Positions 25,694 to 62,046 of a stretch of 64,000 nucleotides of DNA are shown here, piece by piece. Every line of letters begins with the position of its first letter. Position 1 is the first letter of the stretch. A program made the position numbers and the translations under genes. The notes below the pieces were generated by a model, which saw only the letters and a list, made by a program, of their open reading frames with translations, ran no database searches and had not been told where the DNA came from. The stretch comes from Botryllus schlosseri (Eukaryota): NCBI GenBank assembly GCA_051294905.1, contig CM119373.1, forward strand, positions 560,001 to 624,000, read 5' to 3'.

Positions 25694-26659
25694 GGGGGTG
25701 GGCAAACTACGGCCCGCGGGCCGCATGCGGCCCTCGACACCGTTTTGTGCGGCCCGCGATGGTATAAAGAAATTTATCAAAAATATTGATAAAATGCGTA
25801 CTTAAAATCGAGTTATTGCAAGGACTGGATTAACCTTTTTCTTAGTATATTTCACCATAATAATTTTAAGACAGTGGTTGTCAAACGGAGGGGCGCACCC
25901 TCCTTGGGGGTCGTGAAAGTATTTGAAGGGGACGCGAAGCTGAGCTCAACTTAAATTCTTTTCGCGCTCCGCGCCATTCACATACAATTCTAGGGTAAAT
26001 ACTTCCTATATTACTTTCATGTTCAATTTCTGGCGCGACAGCCCGATCTCAAGGCCCACGCAGTTTGAAAGATTTCAACCGGTAAATATCACAGAAATCC
26101 TAAACAACATTGACATAATTCGGATCACGAGTGTGATTTCAGATTAGCCAGTCCAGGTTTAATTATTTCAGTGGTGTGCTTATAATAACGATTCACGCGT
26201 GTCTTAGGTAGATTCGTTTTCTGTAAGCGTACAATTAGGGGATTTATATTTTATCGACACATAGTAGAAGCGCATTTGAAGCTAACATGGTTATGATGCT
26301 TTCGGCATTGTGTGTCTTGGAGCTGTACCAAAAGTGGAATTGGTAAATCTATGAACAGATCGCTGTTCTCAGATTTAAATTTCAGTCCGTTTCTAGGAAT
26401 CGGGACAACCGACAAATTGGTTATTGCGGTCGACCAGCCTATGAAATCTCGCCACAGTTTCTCACGCTTGTCCCATTCATCAAAGTAATGTTTGGTTTGT
26501 ATTGAATAAGCATATATATTATCTCCATGTCATCACTATATGATAAAATGAAACACCACAACTGCGTTTTGGTGTATAGTCCCAATTTTATATAGTGCGG
26601 CCCGCGAATGGATTCAGATGTCGAATGCGGCCCGCGAGCTCTAAAGTTTGCCCACCCCC
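25694..26659. mobile_element. hAT (Charlie-like) MITE
   Basis: TIRs GGGGGTGGGCAAACT...AGTTTGCCCACCCCC, gcggcccgc subterminal repeats, and ggcctagg duplicated at both ends. It splits a repeat whose intact inverted copy is at ~24445-24580. Confidence 0.75.
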
Positions 26660-27221
26660 GGCCTAGGCGATGTAAAGAGGGGGGCATGTACACTAAATGA
26701 AAAGTAATTAAGATAGTATAGAAATAAGCAAGCGATAAAAATGGGCTGGCAAATCATGGAAGGCGAGATCGATAGGTCAGTCGTGGTCCGTTAGTAATTG
26801 CTTGTATTTTAGGGTTGCCATACGTCCTCCTTTTTCGGGTTTTTGAAAATGTCCTCCGAATACGCCTAAATGTCCTTCTTTTTGAGATTTTGTCCTCTTT
26901 TTAGGAATTTCGGTCAAATTGATGGTAAAATTCGACTAAGATGCCGCAGATCGGCACCGAAGTGACGCTCCGGCGGGTATTCCGGGAGCTTACCGAAAGT
27001 GGACCTCTTTTTTATTTAGTCAACCACCCGACAATGTGAAGGAAAAAAACTTAATTTTTGGCACAGAACGATACAGATGACCTTATTTTATTTTTAGTCA
27101 ACCGACTACGAAGTGGTAGAAATTTACCACTTTTTCAGGATTTCCGATTTTCCACCGGTATTCTGTGTTTGAAAATTTTGAAAAACTGTCCTCCTTTCCC
27201 TATTAGTAATTGCTTGTATTT

Positions 27222-27540
27222 CCACTTGATTATGGAGAATTGGACATGCTCGTCGACTGTTGGAAGGCCGGCGGGATACTGTTACACACATCGGGTCCGG
27301 CATATTTAATGGAGCGATGATCTTTTCGGTTGATCATATGATATTTGGACGACGTGGACGCGCGTGTGTTGTACTTGTGCGCTTTTGATTCCAAGGTAAA
27401 AAAAAAAGTCATTGAAATATTCGGGGCCACGACCGCAGTGGAACTGATACATAAACTTGGCGATTTCTAGTTTCCGCATATTTTCTATGTTTAGGACACC
27501 GAGTCTCTTCAGCAGCGACTTGTTGGGTTCAGGTGCATTA
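27222..27540 (-). mobile_element. 3' fragment of a non-LTR retrotransposon (CR1/L2-group ORF2 C-terminus)
   Basis: Frameshifted translation LGVLNIENMRKLEIAKFMYQF...HKYNTR...RSIKYAGPDVCNSIP. Confidence 0.6.
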
Positions 27541-33599: not shown

Positions 33600-34710
33600 C
33601 AGAGTTGGTCAAGGTAGTCAAGAAATCTACTCAAGTAGAGGTAGCGACGAAGAAAGCTACTCAAATACGAGTGGAAGTACTTCTTCTTTAAGCAACCTAA
33701 AACTACTTGAAGTGGAAGTAGAATTAACTGACTTTATATCTACTCAAGTAAGTAAGTAGTTTTGAAAACAGCCTTAATTCGTTCGCATGGACTGTCAAAA
33801 GCTGCGAATTGAGCACGTGCAGGGAGCTTGATTCGTATTGATGCATCCCAGGAGGTATCAATTTTCAACATAATAAGTATTGTTTCGCATCATGGGATGC
33901 AAATTATAGTACTGATATGAAAATGCGATACTTATCTTTTGTTTACTGGAACACCCCGTTTTTAGAGAATGTCATGGGATGGCGCCCTACCCCATATTAT
34001 AAGGCCACAAGTTTAGGCGAAGAGCAATACGTAGAAAATGTATCGGATACGGTTACATCACTTTACGTGATTATTATACGGTAATTAAAATGAAATACCA
34101 ATACCACTTCTAAAAAGCGGAGAATATATTTCCTGTATTTTGTCTACAAAGTTTAAAAGGTCATCTGCTAAAATAGGTGTAACGTTCAAAAAAAAGCTGG
34201 ATTTTTCAGATTATCAAGACACGTAACGGGCTGCTAGATTATAATATGATAGTTAATTGCTAGATTGCGAAACGTAGTTTCAAATGTTGTGGTGGGCCAT
34301 ATTTACTGTGATTAAATATTTGATATGGGCGACAATGCGGTGTGAGAGGAACCAAGCGATCCGGTACCTAAATTACATTCACTGATACTTTCATGAAAAC
34401 ATATTTGTCACTCCATCACTACTATGCGCGAAGCGCAATAAAATTTCTGGGCTTTACTTGACTTTTTGAATATTAGATGTTGGTACTCCATGAAAACAGC
34501 CCCGGGGTTCCTCAGGCTATCTTCCTGATTGGAAGATTAAGCTACTTCTACTTGACAAACTGAAAATAGCGAAAAGTAAGTAAGTAGATCACAAAATATT
34601 ACGAAGTAATAGTAGAAAAATTCAGATCCACTTGAGTAAGTACCATAAGTAGAGGATAACTACTTGAGTACTTCGAAAAAGTAGAAGTACTTCGTTACTG
34701 ACCACCTCTG
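33600..34710. mobile_element. hAT-type MITE (CAGAGGTGGTCA TIR, agtagaagt-rich)
   Basis: Ends CAGAGTTGGTCA...TGACCACCTCTG with imperfect 8-bp flanks tttaaatc/cttaaatt. Shorter copy at 44988-45231. Confidence 0.7.
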
Positions 34711-37700
34711 CTTAAATTCGAGCGGAGGCCTAAAGCATAATACGACATCAATTAGTTACAATCCTATGTATTAATAGATAAATACGGTATGTGTTATTAG
34801 ACCTAAAATAAATGACCAATTGACCATTCTTCTAGTGGAAGAGGGTAGTAGCCCTATATCGTAGGGAGAAATTCGACAAAATGGGGAACTGAGTAGGCTC
34901 CTGGTTGAAATTTGGCATGTTTTGTATGAGAGGTGCGGATTTAAGTAGTTTGAAAACTACTTTTCAAAAAACTACTCGACAGCGGCCCGCGCCAATTGCT
35001 TGGTCTTGATTTCAAAAAGGGCTACTGCAGGCCTGAAAAACCTATATCCAGTGCCTAGAAACTACTTTTCGAATGCACGCCGGATAAACTAGAATAGTAA
35101 ACCGGACCTCTCCGTTATGATGTATAGTGACCCATAACTCAATGTAGGGGTTTGACCCCAGCATTGGTAGAATAAATGGATTGTGTTTTGATAATATTTT
35201 TCGGGATATTTGGCTACCATTTGGACGATAGTTGTGCAGTAATTTTTCGTGTACCTGAAGCCTTGAGTCTGAGTGGTTACCGAATGGTGCAATTCTTAAC
35301 GATAAAAGGTTGGGATAAAAGGTTGGGATCGTGATCATTACAAAATATTGTCACCCAGTTTCACATCTACCCGAATGCGAACACAGCTTGACAAGCAATA
35401 CTCAAATGTAGGGGGTCCCTGATCTGTTGATATCAAGACAATCACGTACAGCATGTGCAGACCCGGTATTGAGATCCTTGTAGAAACATCAGAAGAGGTG
35501 GCCGAGAGTCTTTACTGTGATTTTGTTCCTGCAAAAATTGAGAGAAAATTTGCTTCAAGAACTGGCAATTAAAGATTACTTTTAAATTAGTATCTGTAAG
35601 AACTAGTTTGGTATGAAATGATAACAGGTTTCGGAACTAGACTAGCAAGATATATGGAGTGGATTCTGGAATCTATGCGACCCTGTATTATGGTCCTTGG
35701 CGTTCAGTTAAAACTGAGCGATAGAGCGATTAGAAAATGGATTAACGATATATTACCTATGGCAGTTGGCTGAATAAATAGTACTGTTATTTTTCAAGTG
35801 AAAATAATTTCACAAGTGACTAATAATTGAAGCTGCGAATACTTGAATATTTTTCCCCGCCATTTCTGCGTCATGTATGTGGTATTTGCTTGCTCGGATT
35901 GATTGTTATGGGACCCCAGAACAACTTTGTGCAACCCCAGAACAGCAACGGCCAACTAAGACCTAATACACGGCTTCACCACTTCTTGTTAATTATTAGA
36001 CTGAATGAACCTGCCAAGGTGACTTATGGCTATTGCCTTAAATGAGAAAAATGTTTTTTTGAAGCGTAGGGACTGAACTTTGTTTGTGTGAGGACTTATT
36101 AAATTAGTGTACTCAAGGACATTAAACACTATCCAAATTACTTCATGTTATGGCTAATATACTTTCCAAGTAGGTACTACGTTCAAGTTGAATCTGTAGA
36201 TAGGACAGCACGCGACGTGACGCGCACTGATGGGGGTTTCGCGAGATCTGGGTACACAATGATACGGACAAAATAATACATACCACGAGTTGGAGGTTTG
36301 AGGCAGTGGTGTCGGACTCAAATGGCGTCCCGGGCCGGATTCAGGCTTTCCAATCGCTCGCGGGCTGGTCAGCTGATAAAATAGCAAGTAACAGCATGTG
36401 TTCACGTACAATGGAATTGGCAAATTGCTATGGTATGGGTTGACATATTCTACTCGCTAGTCCAGCACATGTGTTGTGGGGGGCACAGGATACTTGATTG
36501 ATAATAAGTTGGGTCAAATCCTTGTAAACTACACAGGATAGTTTCAATTTGGCGTTCCACTTTTGCAAGAATGAGCACTCATCAGTCGGGGTTGTGGCCG
36601 GGTCAAGTCAGCAATCAAGTTCGGATTCAACTGCTCAGTTTCCTATTGAAGTCTTGCTAATAATAATTTAATTTACTGTTGGCAGTTTATAGCCGCGTAA
36701 ATTGAATCCTAGTAGTTTGATAACTTTGCTGTTATTCAAAATTACAATGAAATGTTGATCTTGATTGTCTGAAATTTGAGACATGCGCCTTGATCTATGA
36801 TGGATGTCGAGTTCGCCGCGAAATCGCAGCGCCATGGTCATAATAAATAATTTTTGAATAATTGTTACATAACGGGTTACGGATATGAGTTTACCTTGCC
36901 GAATGAGCGGTATTCCTGCCGCTCGGCCTGAGTGATAGCTGGTCCTTGTGGGGATGCTATGATGTTCAGTGCGGTTTCTGTAAAAGGAAGACTGATTATT
37001 GCCCAACGATCTCTACAGTCCAAAGGTGGTCATAATGGCAGCATTGTTACTTGGATAGGCTGAGAGCTGTTGAAGTACTACCTGCGAATTTCTGCTTGAT
37101 TGTGGGTAGGATTACCTCGGAACTGCATCACCAATGTGTTGCGAGTTCGAGTCATACCAGAGTAACTACAGAAGGGGTGGTCTTCAGGCTACCGGTCGGC
37201 GGTTGCGAAACAGAAGTTGACCCGGTGTGGGTAACCATAGTGGTCCTGGACATCACAAAATTCTACCCGGGCATGTTGATAGTTAAAAAGTAGTTCGAAT
37301 ACTCGCCTGTTTGATCAGGCAGTAGAAGTAGATGGGACTGACGTGAGTACTCCGAACTAGTGGAAGTACCTATTACCACTGTCTCCAGCGTGAATGTTGA
37401 CAGCAAACTCACTCACCTAACATCGGTCGTTTGTTCGCCGTTCTGCGCTCAACATTGACCGTTTGGATATGGCATTGGTTGCGGAGAACTTTACGACGAA
37501 CCATGCTTATACCGTAGTCTTTGACCGAATTCAAATTCGCGCGGTTTCTGAATTCTTTCTTGTGTCAGTCGGTGCATCGTAGCAGGGGGTAGATTTGTGT
37601 TGGCTGCTGAGTAGCTGGAAGTGCCGATAGGACTCTTTTGCTATGATTTGATCTGTAAAATCAATATACAAATGACTTGAATTCATGCCGATATTGGGTG

Positions 37701-46000: not shown

Positions 46001-47393
46001 ACAAGGCTGCGCAATTCCCACCTTATATACAAAAATGATTTTTCGAATAAGCATAGAAACTGTATTGTCTTTAGTGAAAGTCCACTCTACGTCTATTGTC
46101 TGTTGTGTTGAGATTATATTAAATCACACGGTATAAATGCAATTGAGGACGCACATTGTAGTGAATGATTTGTTTTAACGCCACAATCATTTACGAGAGT
46201 AATGTGGTCCAATTGCAATAGCCCTTCCGCCCGAAAAGTCGTCACAAGAAGGAGAAGATAGTAGCAAAAAGCGGGTAACTTTCCCAGACCCCCTGCCCCG
46301 TGAAAAACCACCCTATTCTCATTATTAAATGTTTTGCTAATCTATTAATTATATTTGAATTTTTAATTTACTTACATTTTTCCCTTTTTATTTGGTCCTC
46401 GCTACAGTCGGCTCCGCGAGATATTAGTGAGATATCTACGAGACATTTTTAAAACTGTTTTAAATTGCTGCTTATTTATTATATGTATATATATTATATT
46501 TTTTTTTTGAAATCCCGATCGTGACGAACGCACAATACATCAAGAATTTCATATAGATATGAAATTTACTATTATTGACTATATCTAAACCGCAAATGTA
46601 AATCTATGTAGAAGACATACTCCCATGCCTGCCTCTCGGCACCCCCCTCACTCCGTGGATACAAATGGCACCGCTTGGCACTTACCAAATGGTAAGAGGT
46701 GTCTTTTTACGAGTGTATGACGGTTTATATTAATTGAGAGAAATTAAGCCTATCAGGTGCTCACGTAATGGAGTTATGTAGATTGTAGCGGTCGCTGCAA
46801 CGGCTTGTTGCAAGACACGCTGGTATAGTGCTTGATTGGAGTCGACGCTACAGCTTACAGTTCCTGTTGTACGCACTAGTCACTGACTAATGACCGCTCT
46901 GAGTATACTCTTGCAATCCTGATCACACACGCAGATCCAAGGAGCTTTCTTTACTAGCACAGAACAGCCAAATAGTAGTAATTAGTGGTCAGAAACTTGT
47001 AGATTTACCAGGTTCAAATCATACTGCGGTTCGATAAGAAATAGAAAGAATAAATGAAGCGAAATGGAGCCAATTGTCTATCTTACGACTGAAGCGCGAC
47101 CGCGCCGACCTCTTATGCGGGCTCTGAGAACACGTGCGCCGCAGACTAACTGTGTCGTCACAGCTTGTGGTTTCGAGAGCAGGGATATGTTTAGATATCC
47201 CGGTTCGAGAGTGACCTATTTACGCTTTCGCGCACAACGGAATTGGGACAGTCATTTACATAGATAAATAATGAGCACGACTCTCGGCACTTCCTATCCA
47301 GTATAGTACTTTGGTTAACTATGGGAAAACCTCGCCTCCCACTTGACATGTTGTAAGTGTGCTGGAAGGGGTGTGACCGTTGATAATGCCTGT

Positions 47394-47411
47394 AAAAGAA
47401 AGGGGGGAAGG
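47394..47411 (+). promoter_or_regulatory. Candidate polypurine tract (plus-strand primer)
   Basis: AAAAGAAAGGGGGGAAGG, nearly the retroviral A-tract/G6 PPT pattern. Confidence 0.45.
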
Positions 47412-47994: not shown

Positions 47995-48501
47995 ATGTGC
48001 CTGGGCTTGCGTTGCAAAGAACCCGAGACGGAGCACCTAATATCGAAACCTCAAAAAGAGGACTTTATCGATCACGGACTAAAGTCGTTGAAATTTCTCA
48101 TGACAACACAATCGTTAACAGATCATCTTTATGATATATTTAATGACGATTCCAGTCTACGATATCGCTATTGGGAAAGAAATAGCGGCTTCCAAACGTG
48201 CGACAGTGATTGGGCTGGTAAAGAACTCGATGAAAACGAGTGGGAAGATACTTACGCAGGGAGCCTTCATCCTGAAGGACCTCTTCAAATGGCGTTCGCA
48301 GATATCTGCATAAACTGGGTAAAAGCCTTGAAAATGGCGAACCCCGAGTGGGTAGAGATACTAAGTGATGAGAAGACTGAACGTAATCTCGTAAAATGGG
48401 TGATCTTCCCCGAAGTCCAGATTTATGCGTACGCGGAAACGCGTTCACTGTCGCTAGAGGAAGCTGACTGTCACTATATGGCACTGAAAGTATCGAAATA
48501 A
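47995..48501 (+). CDS. Orphan acidic 168-aa ORF, probable accessory gene of the retroelement
   Basis: ATG-initiated, intronless ORF in AT-rich DNA; stop overlaps AATAAA; lies 140 bp upstream of array 1. Confidence 0.5.
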   Translation: MCLGLRCKEPETEHLISKPQKEDFIDHGLKSLKFLMTTQSLTDHLYDIFNDDSSLRYRYWERNSGFQTCDSDWAGKELDENEWEDTYAGSLHPEGPLQMAFADICINWVKALKMANPEWVEILSDEKTERNLVKWVIFPEVQIYAYAETRSLSLEEADCHYMALKVSK

Positions 48502-48640: not shown

Positions 48641-49088
48641 ATCCGTACCTTGATGTTAGATCCTGGATAAGACGGACAGATTTTCCAAAATGATAAGGAT
48701 AGTATCCACAATAGATGGATGGAGATCCGTACCTTGATGTTAGATCCTGGATAAGACGGACAAATTTTCCAAAACGATTAGGGCAAATATAACAGATGGA
48801 TAGATATCCGTACCTTGATGTTAGATCCTGGATAAGACGGACAGATTTTCCAAAAGTTTAGGGCTACTAATATAATGTACATCCGTACCTTGATGTTAGA
48901 TCCTGGATAAGACGGACAGATTTTCCAAAACGATTAGGGCTAATATAATTAATGTACATCCGTACCTTGATATTAGATCCTGGATAAGACGGACAGATTT
49001 TCCAAAATGTTAAGGACAATATCCACAATGGATATAGATCGGTACCTCGGTGGTAGACCCTGGTGAAAGACCGACAGATATTCCAAAA
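48641..49088. repeat. Array 1: six copies of a 50-bp hairpin-forming repeat separated by 25-34-bp variable linkers
   Basis: ATCCGTACCTTGATGTTAGATCCTGGATAAGACGGACAGATTTTCCAAAA at 48641, 48725, 48806, 48881 and 48958 (0-1 mismatch), plus a diverged copy at 49038-49088. Confidence 0.95.
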
Positions 49089-50824
49089 CGTTTAGGGCAC
49101 TACCATAGCGATTTACAACGTGACTACGTTGTGAATTGCTATGGAACTACATAAGTTGAATAAAAATGAATATTATAACCGGAAATAATAGGCCTATAAC
49201 ATTAGGAATACCTCAGGCCAGTACTGCTAATATAAAGACCTTAGAAAAGTAACCCATGGTTGAATTTGTCCACACATTCGTTTTTCGAAACTGATGTGCC
49301 GATGATTGAGTATGACATTAGAATAAGACCCGCCTTGTATGCACATTCGTTTCACGAAATGGATGTGTCTGACAAGTGCACTTATGGCACCATGATCAGT
49401 ACGTGCATGCAAATTATTGTATTTTGGCAACGTTACGATAACAAATGACGCAGTATTCTGATATGTGTGTATTTAATGTCCTCCCTGTGCGCATTGAGTG
49501 TATCTACAACTTATATGACAAGAAGAGCGTCTCAAAAACATGCCAATGATTTAATGACCTGCTCTCAATAAGACCATAAGACTGAATGAAGTGATGAAAT
49601 GGCATGAGAGTATCGATATGAACTGGACATTCTGTTGGCATTAATGAACGGCTTGGCGGTACCAACTCTAAAATTACTATTCGACAGTCCCGCAAAACTG
49701 CTCCCCTCGATAGAATCTAGGGCTTAATGAAGTCAAATGAACGAGATGAGAAGAAATCCGGCACCATGAATCACTGCTCAGCAAGGACCAGCGAACCAAA
49801 GGTTGGAACGTGCCAAACAATGCCCGCAAGAAGTCGCGTTGAAGACAGCGGAGAAAAGAGGCGATCAAGACGGCTGCAAAATCAAGAAGAGATACGCAGA
49901 AGGATCGTTTCATCAGCAAGGGAGTTGAAGAAATCGGGTTCGAAATAGATGCACAAGACAAAGTACCCAAGCGTACAGTTGCCAAATACGTCCTTTACAT
50001 ACGATGATGGAGGTCGGAGAGGGTGCGTTTGGCGAACAACGACATGAATCTATCTGCGGCATGATGACGAGACGCGTGAGTCATAACAGGACATTGATAT
50101 TTTCACGTGATGGTTACTTTGATGTATTATTGTATAGTGACGCCATTTTGTTCAAGCGCGGCCTTTACTGTATCTTTGATCAATACCATCAGGTTGCTTT
50201 AAAATGGCGCTAACATTTTATGTCGTAGATATGTGTATGGGTTAGTGAACATTTAATATGTGAATAATTGGTTGTTACTACAGTAATATGATAGCGAATA
50301 CTATGCCTGTAGGCTTTACTTAGGCGTTATACACCGACCACGCCCTATGTTAGTGTCGGGACCCTTCACCCTAGCGGGATAGAAGCTTAGGATTAGAAAT
50401 GGTTAGGGATTTCTTCAGAAAACCCGTAAAAGGGACCCTGGGTATCTAACAGTGTTCGAATAAGCAACACCTTTGTTAAGGGTAGTATCATCAAGTGCAC
50501 TTTAATTGGCATATGGCCATGTTAATCGGGTCAACGATACAAAGTCCTTAATGTTGGAACCTCCCGGAGTTACGCGTTATAACTAGCTACGCACCCTTAG
50601 ACTAAGCTAGGAACCTCTACCTTATTGGAGCATGTGTAGAGTTAAAGATTCGTGGTAAATCAGATCTATTATTTGTGAGACACGGTACATACGAATGAAT
50701 AAAAAGCTTATATACACCGATACAAAGGAACCCAGAGATATAACAGATAGTGATTAAAACATTGGATCGTGCATGACTATTGTGATTGAATGGTGTGTCA
50801 TGTAGCGATATGTCATGAATGAAC

Positions 50825-51053
50825 TTTATGGCAGGAAAGGCCGACACATTCATTAGATGTGTAAACTAACCTCGGAGCTGCTTTACGGCAGGACAGGCCG
50901 TCACATGCATTATATGTGTAAACAAACCTATGAGCTATTTTACGGCAGGAAAGGCCGTCACATTATTTATATGTGTTAACAAACCCTGAAAGATACCACT
51001 TCGGCAGGAAAGGCCGTCGCATAGTTTATATGCGAAAACAAACCTTGGAGTAT
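50825..51053. repeat. Array 2: four ~57-60-bp units, each with two adjacent hairpins
   Basis: Consensus tttACGGCaggaaagGCCGT-CACAT(n7)ATGTG-taaacaaacc; units start at about 50825, 50882, 50939 and 50999. Confidence 0.9.
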
Positions 51054-51180: not shown

Positions 51181-51262
51181 ATGATTGGAGTATTTGGTTG
51201 TATTAAAGGCTTAATTACACGTTATATAAGACTAGTTTAGAACTCTGGACCTAAGGGTCATT
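51181..51262 (+). promoter_or_regulatory. Candidate LTR core promoter (inverted CCAAT, TATA, Inr-like)
   Basis: ATTGG at ~51184, TATATAA at 51223-51229 and TCATT at 51258-51262, about 200 bp upstream of the PBS. Confidence 0.45.
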
Positions 51263-51821: not shown

Positions 51822-51874
51822 AAGGTACGGGACTAAGATTCAGACAATCAACCGTTACATAAAATTTGCGAAAA

Positions 51875-54739
51875 ATGCTAAAATTATTCAAAAAAAGGAA
51901 TAAGTCGTCGAAGGCGGCAGGCGAGCTCGAGCAGGGCATCAAGCTACTGAAAGCAACACAAAAACGCCACGAAGACGTCAGACAACAAGAAAGACAGATG
52001 GCAAAAGACGTGGCTGAACAAACGAAGGTACTAAAAGAAGTCAAATCAACACTGCCCGAGACAATGAAGGGGCTGGAAAAGGCCAAGAAAGAAGTCAGGC
52101 GAGCTCAAGCCGACCTCAAAGCAGTATGCGACGCGACTTCGAAGGTTAGCGGGAAAGTCTCCACTGAAGTCCTCAGTGAGATTCTGAAATCGGAATTTGA
52201 ACTGGGCAAAGCCCATGCCCAAGTGGTTGGAGATAAACCACCACCACCTTCTTCCCTGTCCGTAATGGCTACAACACCTCCCCCGGCGTATGATCCACCC
52301 GTTGGGAAATCGTCCAGGGCAACAGCGCCACTACCCACGTTTACAGTCCAAAAGGGCCTGGATTGCCATACCGTAACTACAGTCTACCCTACGTTGCCCG
52401 GTTCCAAGCCGAGGTCGCTATCAGATTCTCATCCAAAAACGACTCCATGTTTTCCGGTTTGGAATGGAACACGCCCCGAAAGACGAAGGGGGAACCCAGT
52501 CGATACACCCAGTCTATTTCAGCTGAGTAGAACCGGAACAGACACTGGACCAGATTCAGACGAGGACTATGCGCACGCTCGAGAACGGCTCGGAGCATGG
52601 CTCGACGATCAACGAGCAGCCGAAGGAACCCGGACCAGGACACAAGGTGCGGCCAGCACTCCAACAAGGCGCGTTACCTTTCAGGAAGGGAGAACGAACT
52701 ACCGACAAGGCGAAAGCGAAGAGCCCGAAGATTCGGGGGAAGATACTGACGCCCAATTGGACAGACTAGGCAGACAAATAGCGGAGGCACGGGAGGCCAT
52801 TCGGGAAACCACGCGGACGCTTCAGCGGGACTCTGGTCGGCCCAACCCAAGCGAACCCGCAGAGGATATGTCGGACATTGCTGAATACCTCAGATTACCT
52901 CGATACGCATCTACCCCAAGAGAAAGCGAAGGTAGATCGAGACTTCCGCGAGAACAACCGCCAAATGATGCCGTGAACCCGGTGTTGACTACGCCCGAAA
53001 GGTTCCAGTCGGAAAAGGAGATGCTGCAGCTAATGATGGACCCTGGGGATATGCCACTTCTAAAGTGGATGGCTAATACGATGAGACGTATACGACACGG
53101 TGAGGGCGGCACTGATACTGATATCATCCTGGCTAATGCCATGCAGAAGAAGTTGAGAAGTGCGGGTCGCCTCAAACAAGCTAATCAGCTAGGGAATTTC
53201 TTCAACACCAACTCGGGAAATGCAAAATGGGTCTCGGTCATGAAATCATTGTCGCTATCCAACCCGCAAGGCTTGGTAAACAATGAAAAGGTCATCAACG
53301 ATTTCCGAAGGAACTATCAGTGGGAAGACGAACCTCTTCCGCTGTTGAATAGCGCCCTAAAACAACTAGAGATAGATATGGAAGCTGAAATCAAAGAAAA
53401 TCCGGATGGGCTGCGACTCTTCCGCAACCTAAGGCAACGATTACCAGAAGCACTTAGGCTGCTGATGCGGGGATGGGATAGCAGGTCCTGGCAAGAGGTG
53501 GCGGAGGATTTACAGCTGTACTGGAATTCTGAGTTTTTGGATGAACAAGAGGTACGTCCCACCGCTCGAGAGACCAGAAAAACGCGTGAAACAATGTCAC
53601 CCCTACCACCTGTGCACATATATAATGTTCAGCCTACAGGACCCATGATGCACAGTTACCCTACTCACGGGGGTGGAAATGGACGAATAAACACCCCTTC
53701 CCCACCGACTACACCGTCACTTCCAATGGTGCAACCACCCTCACCCCAACAACCTCCGCACATGATCGGGGGGACACCACCCAGACCGTCGGGGAATATG
53801 TCGCCACAGCAGCCCGTCGGCGTCGGGCAAGCGTCGCAGCCACGACGTGGCCCTCCTCGCGGCGCAAAGACCAACCGTTTTCCTACCAATGTAATGAGTG
53901 GAAATAGGTTTGGCAGACAGGGCCCGGCTCCCAGGGCCAAATCTTCCCGAACACAAAATGGGCGCAACGCATCGAATGGACCCAACGTTCCACCAACACG
54001 GAACTCCAGATCTCCTCAAACAAGTCAGGGGCCAAGTACTTCGAACCGGAGACCTCGGATGGTGAATACGCAGGACTCTGGAATTGGCGGGGACAGCCAG
54101 GAAATCACGCCGGCTAGCAGTCAGGAAGCCCTCCGCATCGCGGAGAGCCAAGGTGAGAGGTATAATTTTCTTGGGAACCCCAACATTTTCGCCCCTCTAG
54201 GCTTGTATCTGAACCCCCCTCAGGGGCAGTCCTTATCCGTATGTTATTATTGTAAGGCCCCGGGACACCAATCCCGTAATTGCGTGGCAAAATTCGTGCT
54301 TTGGCTAAATGAGGAGGTGATTGCCAAGGATGATACTTTAGGTTGGGTAGTTCGCAAACGAATACGACCGGTACCTCCGCGCGTAAAGGAGTCCACAAAA
54401 CGCAACTGGGAGCCTTTCCTTGCAAGGAATAACATATTGACGGTCCCGGATCTCGACCGGTACCTTGCCACCCAAGGTTCTCCCTCTCTGACACAGAGAA
54501 CTGCCTTGTGCGAGGCCTATTATGACTCTAGGCCAAAAAACAGAGATAGAACCCACTGGCATGATAGGGACCAATGGGGTCCTCAGGGACCGGCTGTACA
54601 ACCGAACCAGGGCAATAGCCGAGTGGCCTGGACGGAACCGCTATATCGTCGTCCTCCACGTCGCTATGACGCCTCGCACTGGACGGATGAGGAACTTGAA
54701 CAAGGCTTGAGACTCTCAAAAAACGACTGGGGGTGCTGA
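51875..54739 (+). CDS. gag: Gag-like polyprotein (~954 aa from ATG)
   Basis: Basic N-terminus, coiled coil, PPxY late-domain-like PPPAY, helical capsid-like middle, Pro/Arg-rich linker and CCHC knuckle CYYCKAPGHQSRNC. Directly precedes pol. Confidence 0.85.
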   Translation: MLKLFKKRNKSSKAAGELEQGIKLLKATQKRHEDVRQQERQMAKDVAEQTKVLKEVKSTLPETMKGLEKAKKEVRRAQADLKAVCDATSKVSGKVSTEVLSEILKSEFELGKAHAQVVGDKPPPPSSLSVMATTPPPAYDPPVGKSSRATAPLPTFTVQKGLDCHTVTTVYPTLPGSKPRSLSDSHPKTTPCFPVWNGTRPERRRGNPVDTPSLFQLSRTGTDTGPDSDEDYAHARERLGAWLDDQRAAEGTRTRTQGAASTPTRRVTFQEGRTNYRQGESEEPEDSGEDTDAQLDRLGRQIAEAREAIRETTRTLQRDSGRPNPSEPAEDMSDIAEYLRLPRYASTPRESEGRSRLPREQPPNDAVNPVLTTPERFQSEKEMLQLMMDPGDMPLLKWMANTMRRIRHGEGGTDTDIILANAMQKKLRSAGRLKQANQLGNFFNTNSGNAKWVSVMKSLSLSNPQGLVNNEKVINDFRRNYQWEDEPLPLLNSALKQLEIDMEAEIKENPDGLRLFRNLRQRLPEALRLLMRGWDSRSWQEVAEDLQLYWNSEFLDEQEVRPTARETRKTRETMSPLPPVHIYNVQPTGPMMHSYPTHGGGNGRINTPSPPTTPSLPMVQPPSPQQPPHMIGGTPPRPSGNMSPQQPVGVGQASQPRRGPPRGAKTNRFPTNVMSGNRFGRQGPAPRAKSSRTQNGRNASNGPNVPPTRNSRSPQTSQGPSTSNRRPRMVNTQDSGIGGDSQEITPASSQEALRIAESQGERYNFLGNPNIFAPLGLYLNPPQGQSLSVCYYCKAPGHQSRNCVAKFVLWLNEEVIAKDDTLGWVVRKRIRPVPPRVKESTKRNWEPFLARNNILTVPDLDRYLATQGSPSLTQRTALCEAYYDSRPKNRDRTHWHDRDQWGPQGPAVQPNQGNSRVAWTEPLYRRPPRRYDASHWTDEELEQGLRLSKNDWGC

Positions 54740-54761
54740 TTGATCCGGTAAATCAGCTCCC
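54718..54761 (+). promoter_or_regulatory. -1 ribosomal frameshift signal (gag-pol)
   Basis: A_AAA_AAC at 54718-54724 in the gag frame, a 6-nt spacer, then stem GGGuGCUGAUU/AAUCAGCuCCC (54731-54761). Pol is in the -1 frame and open from 54711. Confidence 0.85.
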
Positions 54762-57700
54762 AGACAATTTGTTACCCCAACACGCAAAAACTGTACATAA
54801 TGCTTCTTTACCCCTATTTACATTTCTTGATACACCGGATAACCCACTACAGCCAGACTTTACGGAATTATTCGGCGGTCGGCTCTTGTATTTGGTTGAC
54901 ACCATAACGGGAACTAAATTCTTGGCCGACACGGGAAGCATCCCCAATTTAATAATGAAAAATGATGTAAAAACCATGTATCCCAAGAGCTGGGAGGAAC
55001 GGCAACCCTTAGATATGAAATCACGCGGTATAGGGGGCTCTTCCCACGTTGACTCCTTGGTAATTATTGAATTCGATGGACTACCGGTTCCATTTGCGAC
55101 CGGGAAAGGAGTCCCTCTCAATATTATTGGGTTGAAATGGATTGATCAGGTACAACAATTACCGAACATAGCGACTGAATTTAAAACTCCGTCTAATGCA
55201 AACGAAGAGTTGTCTTTAGTAACACTACATGACGAGATCTCGTGCGATCAACGGGATGGAACCAGAGTCGGAAACAGTCCTTGCAACGCTGCTACCGACG
55301 ATGGGTTGATGGAAGCTGCGAAACAGATAAGCGTCGAGTCGGCGCGCCGGTCATCATCGCCGGCCGTCGCCGCTGGCGCAAGTGTCGAGATGGCAATCGC
55401 CACTGGCGCGGACGACGGGTTGGTAAATACCACTAACGTCGAAAAAAACCTACGGGAAACCCCTAGTGTTGGGACAGGTAGCTCTGCTGGCACTAGGCAA
55501 GAGAGTGTCGGGTCAGGTCGCCCTGCTGGCACTAACCAAAGACGTGTCGAGACAGGAATCCCTGCTGGCACCATTAATGAAGACGTCGAGCGCGGAATCC
55601 CGGCTGACGTAAATAAGGACCTGCACGAGAAAACTGGTCCTGAAAGCTCACGTGGATGCACTTGTTCGAATAACTGTAACAATTCGGCCCAAAGATGCAT
55701 GACGACAGCCACAGTTATGAGTAATTTCCCAAAAGGTTCAAACGAAGCAGCTATTGTCGGTCAACCGGACGCATGTCCAGGCGCATCCGACAAGGAGTCT
55801 GGGGATTTTAAGATGCGCGTCTCCCCAGAAACAGGGCCCCCGGCGGAGAATGAGTCCGTCGGCGTGACGGTAGGTGTGGGCACGCACCGAGCTCAGAGGT
55901 CAGATTGGATAGGTAGGGAATCCCCGCTGACAACGAAGAACCTCGCCCTCTCTCCACCAACACCAAAACCCCGTTTATCACGTGATTCGCATCGGCCGAT
56001 AACTGGTCCTCTTACCACGTACACATTACAACAAGGCACCAGTCCCAGCGTTAAGACGGAACTCGAAAGTCTCTGTGCACAATCGGTAGCACTGGCAAAG
56101 CTTCCATACAAACCTCCTGATCTAACGACCCCGGAAAATACCATCATTGCCGACGAAGTTTGGAAAGCCGTCTATGAGCCTTTCGCAGCTGAACTAGAGG
56201 ACCTGCGTGGCCACTTACGAGCCCCTCAAGCCATGAAGTATAAGTGTGACATAGAACTCAGGGATCCCTCGACTAAGCCTTTTGTTTCTGGACCTTATAA
56301 TCTGAAAGGGGAGGGCCAGGCGAAGGCGTTAAAAGAAGCAGTGGACAACTTCTTGGACCTGGGAATAATTGAGCAAGGATTTGCCGAATGGAAACTGGCC
56401 ATCTTTGTCGTCCCACAAAAAATGAATGAAAGACAGAAGCAGGAGGACGGGTGGAAGCAATCATGGAGAGTCGTACAGAATCTCCAGCCCCTGAACGCTG
56501 CTATAAAGTCAATCGAAGTCCCTCCACCCTTAGTACCAGATGTAAAACAACTCGCCCAGGGAAGAGAAGTGCTCTCCCTGCTGGATTTGAAGAAAGCCTA
56601 TTTCCACATGGATATCACGGAAAGATCCAAGCAATATGTGGGGATAGCAATCAAAGGAATGCACGTAAGATGGCGCAAGATGGTGATGGGATTGAAGACC
56701 GCGGTTGCTCTTTGGAGCGCTAACATGCAAGAATGCGTGGTGAAGCCCATCACGGAAAGGTACCGTCAACACATGAAGCAAAATGGCCGATCGGATGAGG
56801 AGAATGCGACGCCTATGGAGGCCTACATAGACGACATTTTCCTTAGCACAAAAACGGTAGAGGACCATTTGCTTCTCCTACGACTGGTATTTGAACAACT
56901 TGCAAAAATGAAATTGACGCTCAGCATCAATAAATGCTTTATTGGAAAACGGAGAGTAAATCTGCTGGGAGCGACCCTGACGGGGAAAGAGATCGAGGTG
57001 CAGCCCGAGAGAATAAGGGCGCTGCGAGAGCTCTCACCACCCCGAAATATATATGAATTACGGGGATGGATCGGCGCTCTACGCTACATCTCGGAGCACA
57101 TCCCAGAGTTGAGCTTGAAGTTGGCAAAATTTGATGCACTAACGGGAAAAGTCCCAGCGACTCGAGGTAAAATGACACCGGTACTTTGGACCGAAGAATT
57201 AATGCAGGACTACAAGACAGCTCAAGCCGCACTCGACAGTACCAAGGTACTGTATCATCTGGATTCAGGACTTCCCATTTTCGTGGAAACTGATGCATCA
57301 GATGTAGGGTTTGGCTCCGTAATTTTTCAAACGGATGTGGGGGAAAAACCCCCTTTCAAGGAGGTGTATCCGGTCGCTTACTACAGTCAAAAGTGGGTAA
57401 CCCCGACGGCTAAAGCCTATGACCCATGCACCAAAGAGCTTAAAGCCCTGAAGGATTCAGTGGAGAAATGGCAGTCGATGCTGCGCGCCTTACCCTTCAC
57501 TATAATTACTGACAACATGGGAGTTTTTGGACTCCTGAAAAGAATGACAGATGAGGCAAAAAACCCGAGCCCAAAGCCATTGATTCAAAGGTGGCTAAAT
57601 CATCTCTCCGGATTCCAGATAAAAGAGGTAATCCATTTGAGCACGTTCCAAGTGTTTACTTCAGATGGATTGTCCCGATCCTATTGGATGGAAATGGCTG

Positions 57701-58266
57701 CTAGAGATGATGACCCTCATGTCTGGGCCACCCTCCCGGGACACAAAGAATCTCAACAAGAGAAAATACAGCGAACCCTGATGTTCCACTGTCGGCACGA
57801 GTATTGCGCAAACTCTGTCGATGGATACCACCCCTGGGAAGAAGTTCGCGGAATAATCAAAGACAAGCTGCGACAAGACCTCGGGATAACTGAAATCGAG
57901 GATATCATGGCCAATTGCGACAGGGCAGTGATGTCCAGTGAAGGCCTGGCTGCAGCGCACGGGCACACCAAAGGGATGCCACCTCCGTACGAAGAGTACC
58001 TGGGCGATGACATGCTGTATCACATAACGACGGATGAAGGTGCCCGTCAAATCATTGATACCCAACTACACAGAATGAACCGACGGTTCATCCATTTGAG
58101 TAAGATTAACACAACGAAAGCACGTGGGCGTAGAACGGTTCTGAGAATGAGGGCGAGCGACCTCAGAAGGATAGGTCTACGACTCTTACAGTCGCATAAT
58201 CACGAGGTAATACTGTGCGAAGGGCCAATACCGTCAGAGTATATACTGATGGAAAACCTGGCCTAG
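54733..58266 (+). CDS. pol: Pol: aspartic protease, long low-complexity linker, reverse transcriptase, RNase H and a C-terminal Tpt1/KptA-like domain; no integrase
   Basis: FLADTGS (PR); LLDLKKAYFH, MVMGLK and AYIDD (Ty3/Gypsy-like RT); VETDASDVGFG, KELKAL, IITDN and DGLSR (RNase H); CRH...HGHT...LYHIT...MNRRFIHLS...IPSEYI (Tpt1-like). Confidence 0.92.
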   Translation: MLIDPVNQLPDNLLPQHAKTVHNASLPLFTFLDTPDNPLQPDFTELFGGRLLYLVDTITGTKFLADTGSIPNLIMKNDVKTMYPKSWEERQPLDMKSRGIGGSSHVDSLVIIEFDGLPVPFATGKGVPLNIIGLKWIDQVQQLPNIATEFKTPSNANEELSLVTLHDEISCDQRDGTRVGNSPCNAATDDGLMEAAKQISVESARRSSSPAVAAGASVEMAIATGADDGLVNTTNVEKNLRETPSVGTGSSAGTRQESVGSGRPAGTNQRRVETGIPAGTINEDVERGIPADVNKDLHEKTGPESSRGCTCSNNCNNSAQRCMTTATVMSNFPKGSNEAAIVGQPDACPGASDKESGDFKMRVSPETGPPAENESVGVTVGVGTHRAQRSDWIGRESPLTTKNLALSPPTPKPRLSRDSHRPITGPLTTYTLQQGTSPSVKTELESLCAQSVALAKLPYKPPDLTTPENTIIADEVWKAVYEPFAAELEDLRGHLRAPQAMKYKCDIELRDPSTKPFVSGPYNLKGEGQAKALKEAVDNFLDLGIIEQGFAEWKLAIFVVPQKMNERQKQEDGWKQSWRVVQNLQPLNAAIKSIEVPPPLVPDVKQLAQGREVLSLLDLKKAYFHMDITERSKQYVGIAIKGMHVRWRKMVMGLKTAVALWSANMQECVVKPITERYRQHMKQNGRSDEENATPMEAYIDDIFLSTKTVEDHLLLLRLVFEQLAKMKLTLSINKCFIGKRRVNLLGATLTGKEIEVQPERIRALRELSPPRNIYELRGWIGALRYISEHIPELSLKLAKFDALTGKVPATRGKMTPVLWTEELMQDYKTAQAALDSTKVLYHLDSGLPIFVETDASDVGFGSVIFQTDVGEKPPFKEVYPVAYYSQKWVTPTAKAYDPCTKELKALKDSVEKWQSMLRALPFTIITDNMGVFGLLKRMTDEAKNPSPKPLIQRWLNHLSGFQIKEVIHLSTFQVFTSDGLSRSYWMEMAARDDDPHVWATLPGHKESQQEKIQRTLMFHCRHEYCANSVDGYHPWEEVRGIIKDKLRQDLGITEIEDIMANCDRAVMSSEGLAAAHGHTKGMPPPYEEYLGDDMLYHITTDEGARQIIDTQLHRMNRRFIHLSKINTTKARGRRTVLRMRASDLRRIGLRLLQSHNHEVILCEGPIPSEYILMENLA

Positions 58267-58353
58267 GATGCGGGGTGACGCAGCCGTCGAGATTTAACTG
58301 CTGGGAAGTGGTCGATCGTTAAAGGAACTTGTACTTTTTTATTTACTTTTCAG

Positions 58354-59315
58354 ACTCCTTCGTCGAGGATTACAATGTGCTGCGATTGGTGGAAATGGGG
58401 GCCTTACCCCATACACGCGATTGCATCCCTTTTTTAAGAAGCCGGGGTCTACTGAGAAAACAAATGATATGCAGAAAATGCTCAAGATGGATGAAGGAAG
58501 AACGGACTACCGAGAGAATTTCGGACGGATGGAGATGGAGGTGCTCTCCTTGTAAAACCACTGCTACTATCCGCAAGTACTCGTTTTTTTCAAAAAGCAA
58601 ACTTGGGTTACCCCAGCTGCTAGTATTAAGTTATTTTTGGGCCCAAGACTCTCTACAAATTCAAATGGCCCATGAGGCCGAGATCAGCGCACGTACGACG
58701 GTAGAATGGTCTGGACAACTGCGCAAGATATGCTCTGCTTACATACAAAGACGTAAACGGAAATTAGGCGGGGTTGGCCGAACTGTAATCCTGGACGAAA
58801 CTCACTTGGCCAAACGGAAGCGGGCAGCTGGTAGCGGCCAACAAGCAGTGAAGGCTGTCTGGGCTTTCGGTGGCCTGGACCGAGGTACCGGTGACATGTT
58901 TGTGGAGATCACATCTGACCGAACAGCGGACGTTCTGAAAAGACTTATAATTAAGAATGTAGCCAGAGGTTCGACCATTCTGACAGATGGCTATCCATCG
59001 TATAAGGGCATTGAAAGTTGGGGGCAGGGCTATAAACATGGATCAGTTGACCACGCCACCACGTTCAAATCTGCCCAAGGCGTTCATACCAATGATTTGG
59101 AGGCATGTTGGGGCTCGCTGAAATATCATTTACACAGGTCGAGGGGTTTAGCACGCCATTTACTAGCCGATTACGTGGGGGAGTGGCTTTGGAAGAGAAG
59201 ATACCCCCGTAAAAAAAGGTTTGGGGCTCTGTTGAGAACGATATCGCTTGACCCACGGTATTGCAATGACGACCCTAGTGATCAGATCCCTGACGCACAA
59301 GGTGATTCTCATTAA
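58354..59315 (+). CDS. IS1595/ISXO2-family (Merlin-type) DDE transposase, probably expressed from a spliced RNA (first in-frame ATG 58395)
   Basis: Zn ribbon CRKC...WRCSPC, RKYSFFSKSKL, catalytic ILDET / ILTDGYPSY / HTNDLEACW, H..VDH and Y..EWLWK. Preceded by the acceptor tttttttatttacttttcag ending at 58353. Confidence 0.9.
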
Positions 59316-59431
59316 AGCCCAGAGAAGCCTTTAGCAACAAAGAAAGGAAGTTAACAACAGACCGGACAATGTATGTTTCTATTTTTTTGCAGACAATAAT
59401 TAAATCATATTCAATATAAGATAATAAGCTT

Positions 59432-59572
59432 ATGCATTGGGGACCGACGCCTATACCGTCTCAATGGACTACGCTATTTATATTCTGCCTGTCGTTATTG
59501 GTTTCAGTTGCACACCTGATTGCTTGTTGTCTGAGGCGGCGGGCTTCGTGCCGAGATCCGGAGATACTGTAG
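59432..59572 (+). CDS. 46-aa single-pass membrane peptide overlapping the env start (not in ORF track)
   Basis: First ATG after the acceptor at 59392: MHWGPTPIPSQWTTLFIFCLSLLVSVAHLIACCLRRRASCRDPEIL*. Confidence 0.4.
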   Translation: MHWGPTPIPSQWTTLFIFCLSLLVSVAHLIACCLRRRASCRDPEIL

Positions 59573-62046
59573 CAAGCAGGGCCCGAACCTTTACTCAGGG
59601 TACACTGGGTGAATTCAACGGCTCACTACCTGACGACTGGGTTCGGCTAAATGATACGCAATGGGAAACCTACGACCTGATGAGTGCTTTCAATAAGACA
59701 GGGAAACGTCATGTGTACAGGCGACCAACACTGTTTCATAGTGAATCTTTTGGTTACGTGGTGGCCGAACGGGTGTCATTGCAGCAAATGGCGTTCCCAC
59801 AAGGGCGATATTGGTCGAATGTACGGGACTTTGAACGGACCTGCTTATGCCAACGAAAACTAGGCCAAATTTCGCCAAACCTAACCTTTACCGTTCTTGA
59901 CCAGGAAACTGTGTTCGTACGCCCAATAGGACATGGGGTCAGGATACGGTGGTTTTGGGACGAGACCTGGGAAACGTCTAGGCAGAAATGGAGGGCTGGG
60001 GCTGAAGTGGACGAGTGGTCCCATGTGAACGATACCTTAATGGCAATGACCAAATTCAAGTTGATCATGTTACGAGCCTTCGCGGGGTTCTCAGCGGTGA
60101 GATCGACTTGTAGGACAGAGCGCATGACAAAAGATACATGGAACTGGACTCAGGTTGATCGATGGAATAAATATAACGCCAGTAGCTCGAGCATTGCGCA
60201 TTGTTGGCCGAGTAACGTGCTTTGGGCCGGAACATATTCAATAACCTACGACTGGAAGACTCGCACGGCAGACAAACGCCTGGTGTCGTCAACGCCAGAT
60301 TCACGCGGCACCTGTGTTTTTTGTGATATCACAGGGATAATTTCTGCTTTAGAACCGAGCCAAGCAGACATAATAATACAAGAAATAGATACCATTCGTG
60401 CGGAATCCGCATGGGAACGTAAGTGGCATCCTATGCAAAACTGCCGAGCTACGTCAGGACTGATCACCCAGGAAAACTATGAACACCTTTGGCAGGTCGT
60501 CCATCACTCACCAACCTTATCCGGTAAGGGCCTACGCAACATCGTGCATCCTCCATCATGTAATTTTTGGCCGACGCAGAACAAGAGTAAGTGGGGGGAC
60601 TTGCCCACCTCGAATTTTCCTCGAAGGATTAGATGGATACAGGCGTCCTTATCGAACTGGAAGGGTCAAGATGACCAAGGGCTTGGTTGGGATAACTTGT
60701 TCGACGGACCTGCCGAAAAACCAGCCGCACCCAACGACATACTGCCTATTTGGCGAAAGCACCCCTCTTTGGTTGCGGATGATCCTAGGTGTCAGGAACG
60801 GATAAGTGGTAGCGACTGTCAAGATCCGGTCGGGGGCCCTCAGTTGAAGGCGGCCTTTTGGGATCAGGTGCACTTCGACCCTGAGCGTAACCGACCCCGT
60901 TTTCCGGGAGGTCCTATAGAAATAAAAGGAGACATCGCACATAATAATAGGAGGATTGGGGGGAAACGTAGACGTAAACGATTCCTCTTCGGCCTACTGG
61001 CACTAATCTTTGCCGTCGTGTCAGTTGTCGCTGTTGTCGCAACTGTATCTTCCCAACTGCATAAAGAAACTGAGGACCTGAGTCATCAAATCAACGACAG
61101 AATGATCCAGGCTACGGAGAGATCAACCGAACTAGGGAAAAAGATAAACGAACTCTCCCAAATCCAAACAGCGCAACAACAAAAGCTGGACCGATTGGTT
61201 GAAAACATGGAGGTAAGAGCATCACTGACGGACAGACGATTGGTGTGGATGCAGAAAATGGTGGAGAAAAACCGACAAATGATATTGCGGCAGGCTACCA
61301 TCACCCTCGCTCAGTTTCAAAGTTTCACAGAGGTGAGCGACGCTGAACTTGCCGTCGACCGCTTGGTCATGAAAGAATTAGCTAATTTGACCGGAAAGTC
61401 CATATTCGATTCGAGTAAGGTCTATCTTACACAGATTCGGAAAGGGACATTGCAGGTGCGGGAGCATGCTCAGCAGTTATCCGCCTATAAAGATACGTAT
61501 GTAAATGAGACAAACGACATCAGTAGTAAACTCCGAGCCAACAGGCTTCGTCTGAACCAGGCTCAAGAAGAAGTGGATCTCAGTATACAGGTATGGAAGG
61601 AAGACCTGAACCGGAGTGTGTTCGTAAATATCTCCGACTGGCGCTACGAGAATGTGTCAGTAGCCCCCTTCGAGTTTGCTGGGGGGGAAGAATTTATGAA
61701 GAACTTTGGCAAAACGATAGAAGAGATGGCGAACGGTGCCGGAAGTCTGATAGAATCGGTCGGAAACGGTGCCGGTAACCTCCTACAAAAGGGACTTGGA
61801 GCAATCGGAGGTCTGTTTGGAAGTGGACTGAGTGGCATTTTTTCGGGCCTCGGATCCATCCTCCTCCCCTTGGGACTTGTACTGGGTGCGGTGATTATCT
61901 TATTCTGTTGTGTCAGGTATCACAGCCTATGCTGTCCCAAGTTAAAATCTAGCGTACAAAGGCGGAACACTAACGCCCAACTTGCAATGTATATAACGTC
62001 GACACCATCTTACACCGTAAAGCCCAGGCCCATAGTGCGACGGTAA
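59464..62046 (+). CDS. env: Envelope fusion glycoprotein (class-I-like)
   Basis: Signal-like N-terminus MDYAIYILPVVIGFSC, many N-glycosylation sequons, furin site KRRRKR (60964-60981), fusion peptide FLFGLLALIFAVVSVVAVV, heptad repeats, Gly-rich pre-TM region, TM ILLPLGLVLGAVIILF and a Cys-Cys tail. Confidence 0.88.
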   Translation: MDYAIYILPVVIGFSCTPDCLLSEAAGFVPRSGDTVASRARTFTQGTLGEFNGSLPDDWVRLNDTQWETYDLMSAFNKTGKRHVYRRPTLFHSESFGYVVAERVSLQQMAFPQGRYWSNVRDFERTCLCQRKLGQISPNLTFTVLDQETVFVRPIGHGVRIRWFWDETWETSRQKWRAGAEVDEWSHVNDTLMAMTKFKLIMLRAFAGFSAVRSTCRTERMTKDTWNWTQVDRWNKYNASSSSIAHCWPSNVLWAGTYSITYDWKTRTADKRLVSSTPDSRGTCVFCDITGIISALEPSQADIIIQEIDTIRAESAWERKWHPMQNCRATSGLITQENYEHLWQVVHHSPTLSGKGLRNIVHPPSCNFWPTQNKSKWGDLPTSNFPRRIRWIQASLSNWKGQDDQGLGWDNLFDGPAEKPAAPNDILPIWRKHPSLVADDPRCQERISGSDCQDPVGGPQLKAAFWDQVHFDPERNRPRFPGGPIEIKGDIAHNNRRIGGKRRRKRFLFGLLALIFAVVSVVAVVATVSSQLHKETEDLSHQINDRMIQATERSTELGKKINELSQIQTAQQQKLDRLVENMEVRASLTDRRLVWMQKMVEKNRQMILRQATITLAQFQSFTEVSDAELAVDRLVMKELANLTGKSIFDSSKVYLTQIRKGTLQVREHAQQLSAYKDTYVNETNDISSKLRANRLRLNQAQEEVDLSIQVWKEDLNRSVFVNISDWRYENVSVAPFEFAGGEEFMKNFGKTIEEMANGAGSLIESVGNGAGNLLQKGLGAIGGLFGSGLSGIFSGLGSILLPLGLVLGAVIILFCCVRYHSLCCPKLKSSVQRRNTNAQLAMYITSTPSYTVKPRPIVRR

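Follow-up and report, generated by a model that had tools for sequence, protein, structure and literature searches.

A structured, non-CRISPR hairpin array in a giant reverse-transcribing element with DNA-transposon ends in Botryllus schlosseri

Introduction

RNA export elements and direct repeats have precedent in the 3′ and LTR regions of retroviruses (PMC7551171). HTLV-1 RxRE, the RSV direct repeats, the MPMV CTE and the MLV gamma-CTE are cis elements, either repeated or with a defined structure, that lie towards the 3′ end of gag-pol-env RNAs (PMC7551171 and PMC4330393), and the array described here, array 1, is alike in this respect. It also shares a purine-rich internal loop and repeated units with retroviral 3′/LTR export elements. 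It differs from them in being built of tandem units, 2–16 per copy among the arrays analysed, in not being universal within its family, and in that no Rev/Rex-like partner was identified. The CTE, which binds NXF1/Tap, features AAGACA in an internal loop (PMC4330393); this hexamer was found in 0 of 175 array units on either strand, and membership of array 1 in the CTE class was rejected on that ground. A further precedent is provided by the Pol III miRNA cassettes of foamy viruses and BLV (PMC3993851). Array 1 likewise groups hairpins at the U3 position within a retroelement, but it has no canonical or relaxed B box, its terminator run is not conserved (TTTT is absent from the distant homologue described below), its stems are far shorter and its units are homologous repeats.

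The element that carries array 1 also invites comparison with known systems. Merlin/IS1595 transposons (PMC8101967) have terminal GG, an 8-bp target-site duplication (TSD) and a DDE_Tnp_IS1595 domain, all of which recur here. Imperfect terminal inverted repeats (TIRs) are known in that group, and PMC8101967 quotes lengths of 24–462 bp, against ~21 bp in the host element. The host element departs from Merlin/IS1595 in its length of 10–42 kb and in carrying gag, RT/RNase H, a primer-binding site (PBS), a polypurine tract (PPT) and env-like ORFs. With Ty3/gypsy elements, errantiviruses, caulimoviruses, DIRS elements and Kuafuorterviruses it has in common a tRNA-primed RT/RNase H Pol, a zinc-knuckle gag and the order PPT–U3–R–U5–PBS. 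Unlike LTR elements, caulimoviruses and DIRS elements, it has a Tpt1-like C-terminus and transposon ends, and neither an integrase or tyrosine recombinase nor an LTR pair was found. Kuafuorterviruses are LTR-flanked elements of 5–6 kb with an integrase and an IADD, VADD or LADD motif (PMC11673190). The host element, with a YIDD motif and neither LTR pair nor integrase found, was not assigned to them, its length being a further difference. Teratorn is a piggyBac transposon fused to a herpesvirus genome, a virus-like genome that integrates by means of a borrowed DNA transposase and the matching ends; in the host element the transposase is Merlin instead, and its partner is reverse-transcribing. 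No description of such an element was found in the literature searched, which comprised listings and the opening parts of abstracts and left most subscription journals and Repbase Reports outside its scope, and no similar U3 repeat was found in it either.

Here we analyse a stretch of 64,000 nt from Botryllus schlosseri (the window), in which a sequence-only reading had described a CRISPR-looking array of six hairpins. Array 1 is real and structured, and it is not CRISPR. Its host element, which may be of a new kind, is the larger finding.

A tandem array of short interrupted hairpins

Array 1 occupies 48641–49099 on the + strand and comprises six units, each consisting of a 35-nt interrupted hairpin, a CCAAAA segment, an AGG segment and a variable tail that often forms a hairpin of its own. 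The units start at 48641, 48725, 48806, 48881, 48958 and 49038, a period of 75–84 nt (TRF score 518), and homology extends to ~49099. The array is non-coding on this strand, with 11–12 stops in each frame. The six units and the linkers of 34, 31, 25, 27 and 30 nt given by the sequence-only reading were recovered. Its description of the units as 50-bp hairpins holds in part: the array is real, and the hairpin is limited to columns 2–36, with 9–10 pairs. The sequence TTTTCCAAAA, placed after the hairpins by that reading, actually lies within the 50-mer. The sixth unit (49038–49088, + strand, with a 1-nt insertion) had been regarded as a diverged copy and is instead a member of a widespread second class, type B, which accounts for 56 of 175 units and is no product of decay.

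A degenerate pattern of the unit core gave 245 matches in the 495 Mb of genome searched, versus 0 for a reversed control. Thirty array loci were fetched, of which eight were left out as overlapping duplicates, so that unit counts refer to 22 loci. Extraction yielded 180 units; five that were out of register because of indels, window unit 6 among them, were dropped, and the remaining 175 collapse to 84 distinct cores. At the 22 non-overlapping loci, arrays contain 4–16 units each with periods of 63–84 nt, and one further family has an array of two units.

The linkers are homologous tails that are used repeatedly and differ in this from unique spacers. Only 59 distinct sequences make up the 157 internal tails, 115 of the 157 are common to more than one locus, and identical tails recur inside single arrays. 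The AGG segment opens the tail in 168/175 units. The 22 commonest tails are 13–34 nt long, and about half of them end in a small hairpin of their own.

Right after array 1, at 49103–49144, stands a longer, near-perfect hairpin with a chance-level Rfam match to a miRNA (E 5.4). Sequence resembling it trails the last unit in many copies.

Covariation and strand preference of the hairpin

The hairpin spans ~35 nt in helices of 4–5, 2 and 3 pairs, with a mean energy of −7.2 kcal/mol (68 of the 84 distinct cores keeping all ten pairs). Its outer stem, columns 3–6 with 32–35, is 99–100% paired across the distinct cores. The two double changes named in the window by the sequence-only reading, one in the outer and one in the inner stem, were found at columns 4:34 and 13:21. 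Outer-stem double changes occur at 3:35 (1 core), 4:34 (19 cores) and 5:33 (2 cores); pair 13:21 is A-U in 64 cores and G-C in 20, and these changes represent few independent events, with 4:34 and 13:21 belonging to one class split. Pairs 8:26 and 9:25 are near-invariant. A distant single-copy homologue, from a subfamily with 86% RT identity (nhmmer E 0.003), preserves 7 of 9 pairs with identical spacing and the same fixed unpaired bases, and its 6:32 pair has changed to G-C; its surroundings cannot be aligned to the window. Covariation across more copies was accordingly recovered, with a double change at each of the four outer-stem pairs among the 175 units and this homologue. The pair set was chosen from these same sequences.

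Column pairs whose commonest state is Watson–Crick number 290, of which 37 show a double change; six of these 37 are at least 99% paired, and four of the six fall in the named structure. Alleles common to at least two loci number seven at the 18 paired columns versus 33 at the 32 unpaired ones. Pairing is kept in all four pair states of shared alleles, and 7 of the 12 states confined to one locus disrupt it; the numbers are small. In the loop, UAG is retained in 172/175 units while columns 15–16 vary freely. The structure is also recovered preferentially on one strand: RNAalifold finds the hairpin on the + strand and misses it on the − strand, and the outer-stem pair probability is 0.91 versus 0.68. 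Including the tail, which competes with the hairpin, lowers the + strand value from 0.91 to 0.42. Folding is not better than that of shuffled sequences (z −1.0 to +0.9 per unit and −1.1 over the full array). In one family a unit has become a near-perfect hairpin, so that complementary changes could also be created by template switching without selection. Nonetheless, the concentration of variation at unpaired columns and the covariation support the view that a single-stranded structure is under selection, as had been proposed from the window. A scan with a structure descriptor returned two further matches in the window and one in L039, which were taken as chance for want of support from a profile search.

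An internal LTR-equivalent

Array 1 had been placed upstream of retroelement genes, and its position can now be given as between a PPT-like tract and the candidate R, which the PBS follows. The order of features on the + strand is PPT, a 168-aa ORF, array 1, array 2, leader mimic, U5, PBS and gag, which puts array 1 in the U3-equivalent, at the predicted 3′ end of the element RNA. The putative PPT, and thus the start of the U3-equivalent, is an A/G run at 47394–47411, one of only two such tracts in 27.5–64 kb. Similar tracts lie upstream of the array at 15 of 27 other array loci scanned, some of which overlap and some of which are short of upstream DNA. Within the U3-equivalent, the accessory ORF of 168 aa (47995–48501) has a homologue in the main subfamily; it has no Pfam family, and its matches in an atlas search all scored below 0.85. 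Array 2 (50823–51050) has four units, each of 57 nt and with two hairpins, among which changes look compensatory, and its homologues are single-copy in three other subfamily copies.

The predicted start of R, at 51184–51207, is an element-encoded spliced-leader mimic, of which 23 nt are identical in five subfamily representatives with diverging flanks. Bulk RNA contains 71 reads with the template-switch oligo directly before 51184 that diverge soon downstream. The passage of the reads from a shared leader into different sequences fits a host spliced leader, which we take to be probably the ascidian one. The reads at 51183 were rejected as marking an element start site: 96% of the reads placed from that run continue unlike the element, which points to trans-spliced mRNAs of the host and not to element transcription. 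The PBS at 51439–51456 matches without mismatch the complement of a host tRNA-Thr(CGU) 3′ end, made up of the 15 nt that close the gene and the added CCA (one match, 0 in the control). The sites following U5 in the subfamilies at L038, L039, L084 and L085 differ, and presumably fit tRNA-Ile and another tRNA-Thr. The roles of PPT and R at 47394 and 51184 are predicted from sequence.

A giant element with retroelement genes and transposon ends

The host retroelement is 38.2 kb long and lies on the + strand from 27526 to the window's end at 64000 and for 1,757 nt past it, to G000:C3:625757. Both ends are sharp. The left 8-bp TSD (27518–27525) is followed by the left imperfect TIR, which extends to 27546, begins with GG and matches the right end at 15/21 bases. 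Element ends have the form GG...CC, and a perfect 8-bp TSD was present in 9 of the 12 end pairs examined, with 7/8 bases in two more; the right end was not found for the remaining one. No long direct repeat lies between the element ends in the manner of a flanking LTR pair. Copies span 10–42 kb, and the genome contains 52 full-span RT matches at least 85% identical.

All genes lie on the + strand. The gag-like ORF (51863–54739) contains a single zinc knuckle, whose PF00098 match (E 5e-4) falls narrowly short of the cut-off. It is followed by pol (54700–58266), with a protease-like motif recognized by eye, RT, RNase H and, at ~57750–58230 where an integrase would be, a C-terminal domain like Tpt1/KptA RNA 2′-phosphotransferase. 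The Tpt1 match is below the Pfam cut-off in the window (E 5e-5) but passes it in several relatives found in other assemblies. One of the relatives that share the domain also adds an exonuclease/endonuclease/phosphatase domain. No rve-type integrase was found by Pfam in pol, where a stop follows the Tpt1-like domain, or in the relatives. Next come a Merlin/IS1595-family DDE transposase (58323–59315; PF12762, E 9e-13, above the cut-off) and an env-like ORF (59428–62046), in which a basic cleavage site, a hydrophobic stretch, long helices and a C-terminal hydrophobic segment were recognized by eye. The env-like ORF has no Pfam match, and a single-sequence model of its C-terminus is of low confidence (pLDDT 56, pTM 0.22). 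The last long ORF begins at 62123 and runs beyond the window's end at 64000, and it has no Pfam family.

Among solved structures the best RT match is 8r0s, 'Enzymatic polyprotein', which we take to be a caulimovirus RT, followed by Ty3 and foamy-type entries. General RT relatives are 25–32% identical, and a separate group of ~25 proteins or fragments from other assemblies reaches 34–70%, several of them with the Tpt1-like domain. Searches of viral contigs with the core pattern gave 0 matches, and searches of metagenome contigs with Pol gave at most one weak, unrelated-looking match.

Subfamilies and circular permutation

In the main-subfamily copy at C10:4938397-4977597 the element ends lie between pol and the transposase, and a perfect TSD was present in both main-subfamily copies checked. 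The order in this subfamily is transposase, env-like ORF, last ORF, accessory genes, leader mimic, gag and pol; counted from the leader mimic, gene order is the same in both subfamilies. This permutation leads us to propose a DNA intermediate that is circular, with an RNA running across the joined transposon ends. In a main-subfamily copy, unbroken reading frames encode an LRR protein, another transposase of Merlin type, an IAP with three BIR domains and a RING, and a ubiquitin-conjugating E2 (L046:3177-4214, L046:4886-5830, L046:7043-8734 and L038:1-477). A long inverted repeat with arms of at least 600 bp (L048:2700-3897) abuts the left end of the C10 copy.

Array 1 is unevenly distributed among these elements. 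By-eye comparison found no exact core match near RT in any of 19 main-subfamily copies on C1–C7, and profile searches covering the non-coding DNA of the C10 copy and three further 8-kb stretches, two from copies at 85% and one from a copy at 63%, found no motif; the motif is therefore not universal. Wider conservation is seen for the units of array 2 and for the leader mimic. Two RT-less copies with long arrays retain the leader mimic and an intact-looking PBS. Arrays of RT-less copies, with a median of 8 units, are not significantly longer than the others (median 6; 15 versus 7 loci; p 0.14). No U5/PBS match was found in the 10-kb family, which suggests that some derivatives may move as plain DNA transposons.

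A bolder reading, which we hold with about even confidence, is that array 1 is a new RNA motif of an undescribed class of giant, reverse-transcribing and probably enveloped elements. A tRNA-primed RNA would begin at the built-in leader copy and be copied into a circle with one LTR; the Merlin/IS1595 transposase would open this circle at the internal ends and integrate it with an 8-bp TSD; and the array would be an export or protection signal for RNA that has to escape trans-splicing. If true, the circle model would constitute a new route of retroelement integration, distinct from integrase and tyrosine recombinase, and would explain why LTR-based annotation misses such elements. The host element would also be an example of mobile DNA dealing with trans-splicing in its host. 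As its ends, primer site and gene order indicate, parts for reverse transcription and for DNA transposition travel in it as one 10–42 kb unit, with more than 50 RT-bearing copies in this one genome, and array 1 offers a covariation-supported motif with a natural 2–16-fold variation in copy number.

Possible functions of the array

What is observed of array 1, namely the repeat, its covariation, strand preference and position and the distant single-copy homologue, we would explain, with moderate confidence, as a multivalent protein-binding RNA element for the export or stability of unspliced RNA. Each unit would be a small cis-acting structure in the 3′, U3-equivalent part of the sense RNA, with an interrupted hairpin that fixes a UAG loop and a purine-rich bulge ahead of the conserved single-stranded CCAAAA and AGG segments. 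The unit would most likely bind a host or element protein that aids export or stabilization of the long unspliced RNA. Repetition would supply more binding sites, and slippage or template switching would change their number. An RNA spanning the array, its binding by protein and the outcome for export or stability are all predicted steps of this reading. Points against it are the patchy distribution of the motif, the scarcity of array 1 RNA, the small number of independent double changes, the competing tail, the hairpin-perfected unit and the array lengths of RT-less copies.

Retroviral U3 direct repeats have a unit length similar to that of array 1 and a variable copy number, and array 1, with its 63–84 bp units, shares their position. 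It may thus be a set of enhancer repeats acting as DNA, with stems left behind by template switches as the element was reverse-transcribed, a reading that we consider unlikely although the position fits. It would account for the location of the array in the U3-equivalent, between PPT and R and 2.1–2.5 kb upstream of the predicted start site, and for the hairpin-perfected unit. RNA from array 1 is also scarce, with a depth of 0 in bulk library X23 (6% of the run read) and 0–0.95 in single-cell library X21 (3%); depth over array 2 in X21 is 176–444, on one strand and largely from related copies. A GGAAA site is present on the − strand in 108/175 units, but type B and the distant homologue lack it, and a GATA site occurs in only 3 of 175 62-nt units. 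Readings of the unit as a Sm, GATA or NFAT site were rejected, as the sites occur in only part of the units. Moreover, four adjacent outer-stem pairs have changed on both sides while internal mismatches remain unconverted, and the paired-column covariation and sense-strand folding preference set array 1 apart from retroviral U3 direct-repeat enhancers.

The array could also be an accessory cluster of non-coding RNAs, in which units, freed or transcribed as RNAs of 60–85 nt, serve as decoys for host proteins or as a source of small RNAs; we regard this as doubtful. Like the swappable accessory genes nearby (IAP, LRR, E2), the motif is restricted to certain subfamilies, and miRNA clusters of foamy viruses occupy U3 (PMC3993851). 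Libraries X23 and X21 would miss short RNAs. The Pol III or pre-miRNA origin that had been offered as an option is not borne out by the units, in which a T4 run is present in only 111/175 and a canonical or relaxed B box in 0/175 on either strand. The stems, of 4–5, 2 and 3 pairs, are too short; stems of 2–5 bp are not known to be a Dicer/Drosha substrate. Rfam provides no match for the unit: scans of the window region and of three other loci returned 3 and 1 chance matches (E 3–9.9), none a ribozyme.

The fixed unpaired bases and the variable-length tail hairpin, with possible extra pairings of columns 8–10 with the tail AGG and of 24–26 with CCA, would suit a pseudoknot or small self-cleaving ribozyme of a new type. 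In that case the Tpt1-like domain, present in Pol across the lineage, would clean up 2′-phosphate ends after cleavage and ligation. This is improbable, given that the 24–26/CCA pairing is broken by an allele common to 13 loci, that no ribozyme family was found in Rfam at E≤10, and that the hammerhead core CUGANGA occurs in 0/175 units, strict or relaxed, on both strands. Cleavage within U3 would in addition cut the genomic RNA, subfamilies with the same Pol lack the motif, and no read ends pile up in array 1, where depth is near zero.

That neither unit nor array is selected, array 1 being a neutral minisatellite, seems very improbable. Folding energy is at shuffle level, the motif is dispensable in several subfamilies and the genome is rich in tandem repeats of 35–84 nt, but neutrality sits poorly with the covariation, with variation mostly at unpaired columns and with a distant homologue conserved amid unalignable DNA. 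A CRISPR-like memory array with acquired spacers, suggested by the look of repeats and linkers, can be dismissed, since its tails are homologous and reused within and between arrays, being neither unique nor unrelated, and no Cas-type family was found by Pfam in nine ORFs of the window or in 11 from a related copy.

Neighbouring sequences

Several other repeats accompany the element. A 478-bp insertion at 46784–47261 is missing from sister copies and elsewhere occurs in pairs ~2.8 kb apart, like a solo LTR from a different family. A 1.1-kb segment of the element (33600–34714) is kept at 91–93% identity in many short derivatives. To the left of the element, at 25696–26660, lies a MITE-like element of ~1 kb, present in many copies across the genome, whose subterminal motifs are palindromic and GC-rich; the 30-bp 'terminal repeat' seen at 25710 was set aside as part of this separate MITE. 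Dispersed minisatellite families of 35–42 nt populate window positions 1–24000 (e.g. 2969–3802, 9304–9711 and 10990–11389). In host DNA downstream of the element, a pentraxin-like ORF was recognized by eye on the − strand (L031:5232-5942).
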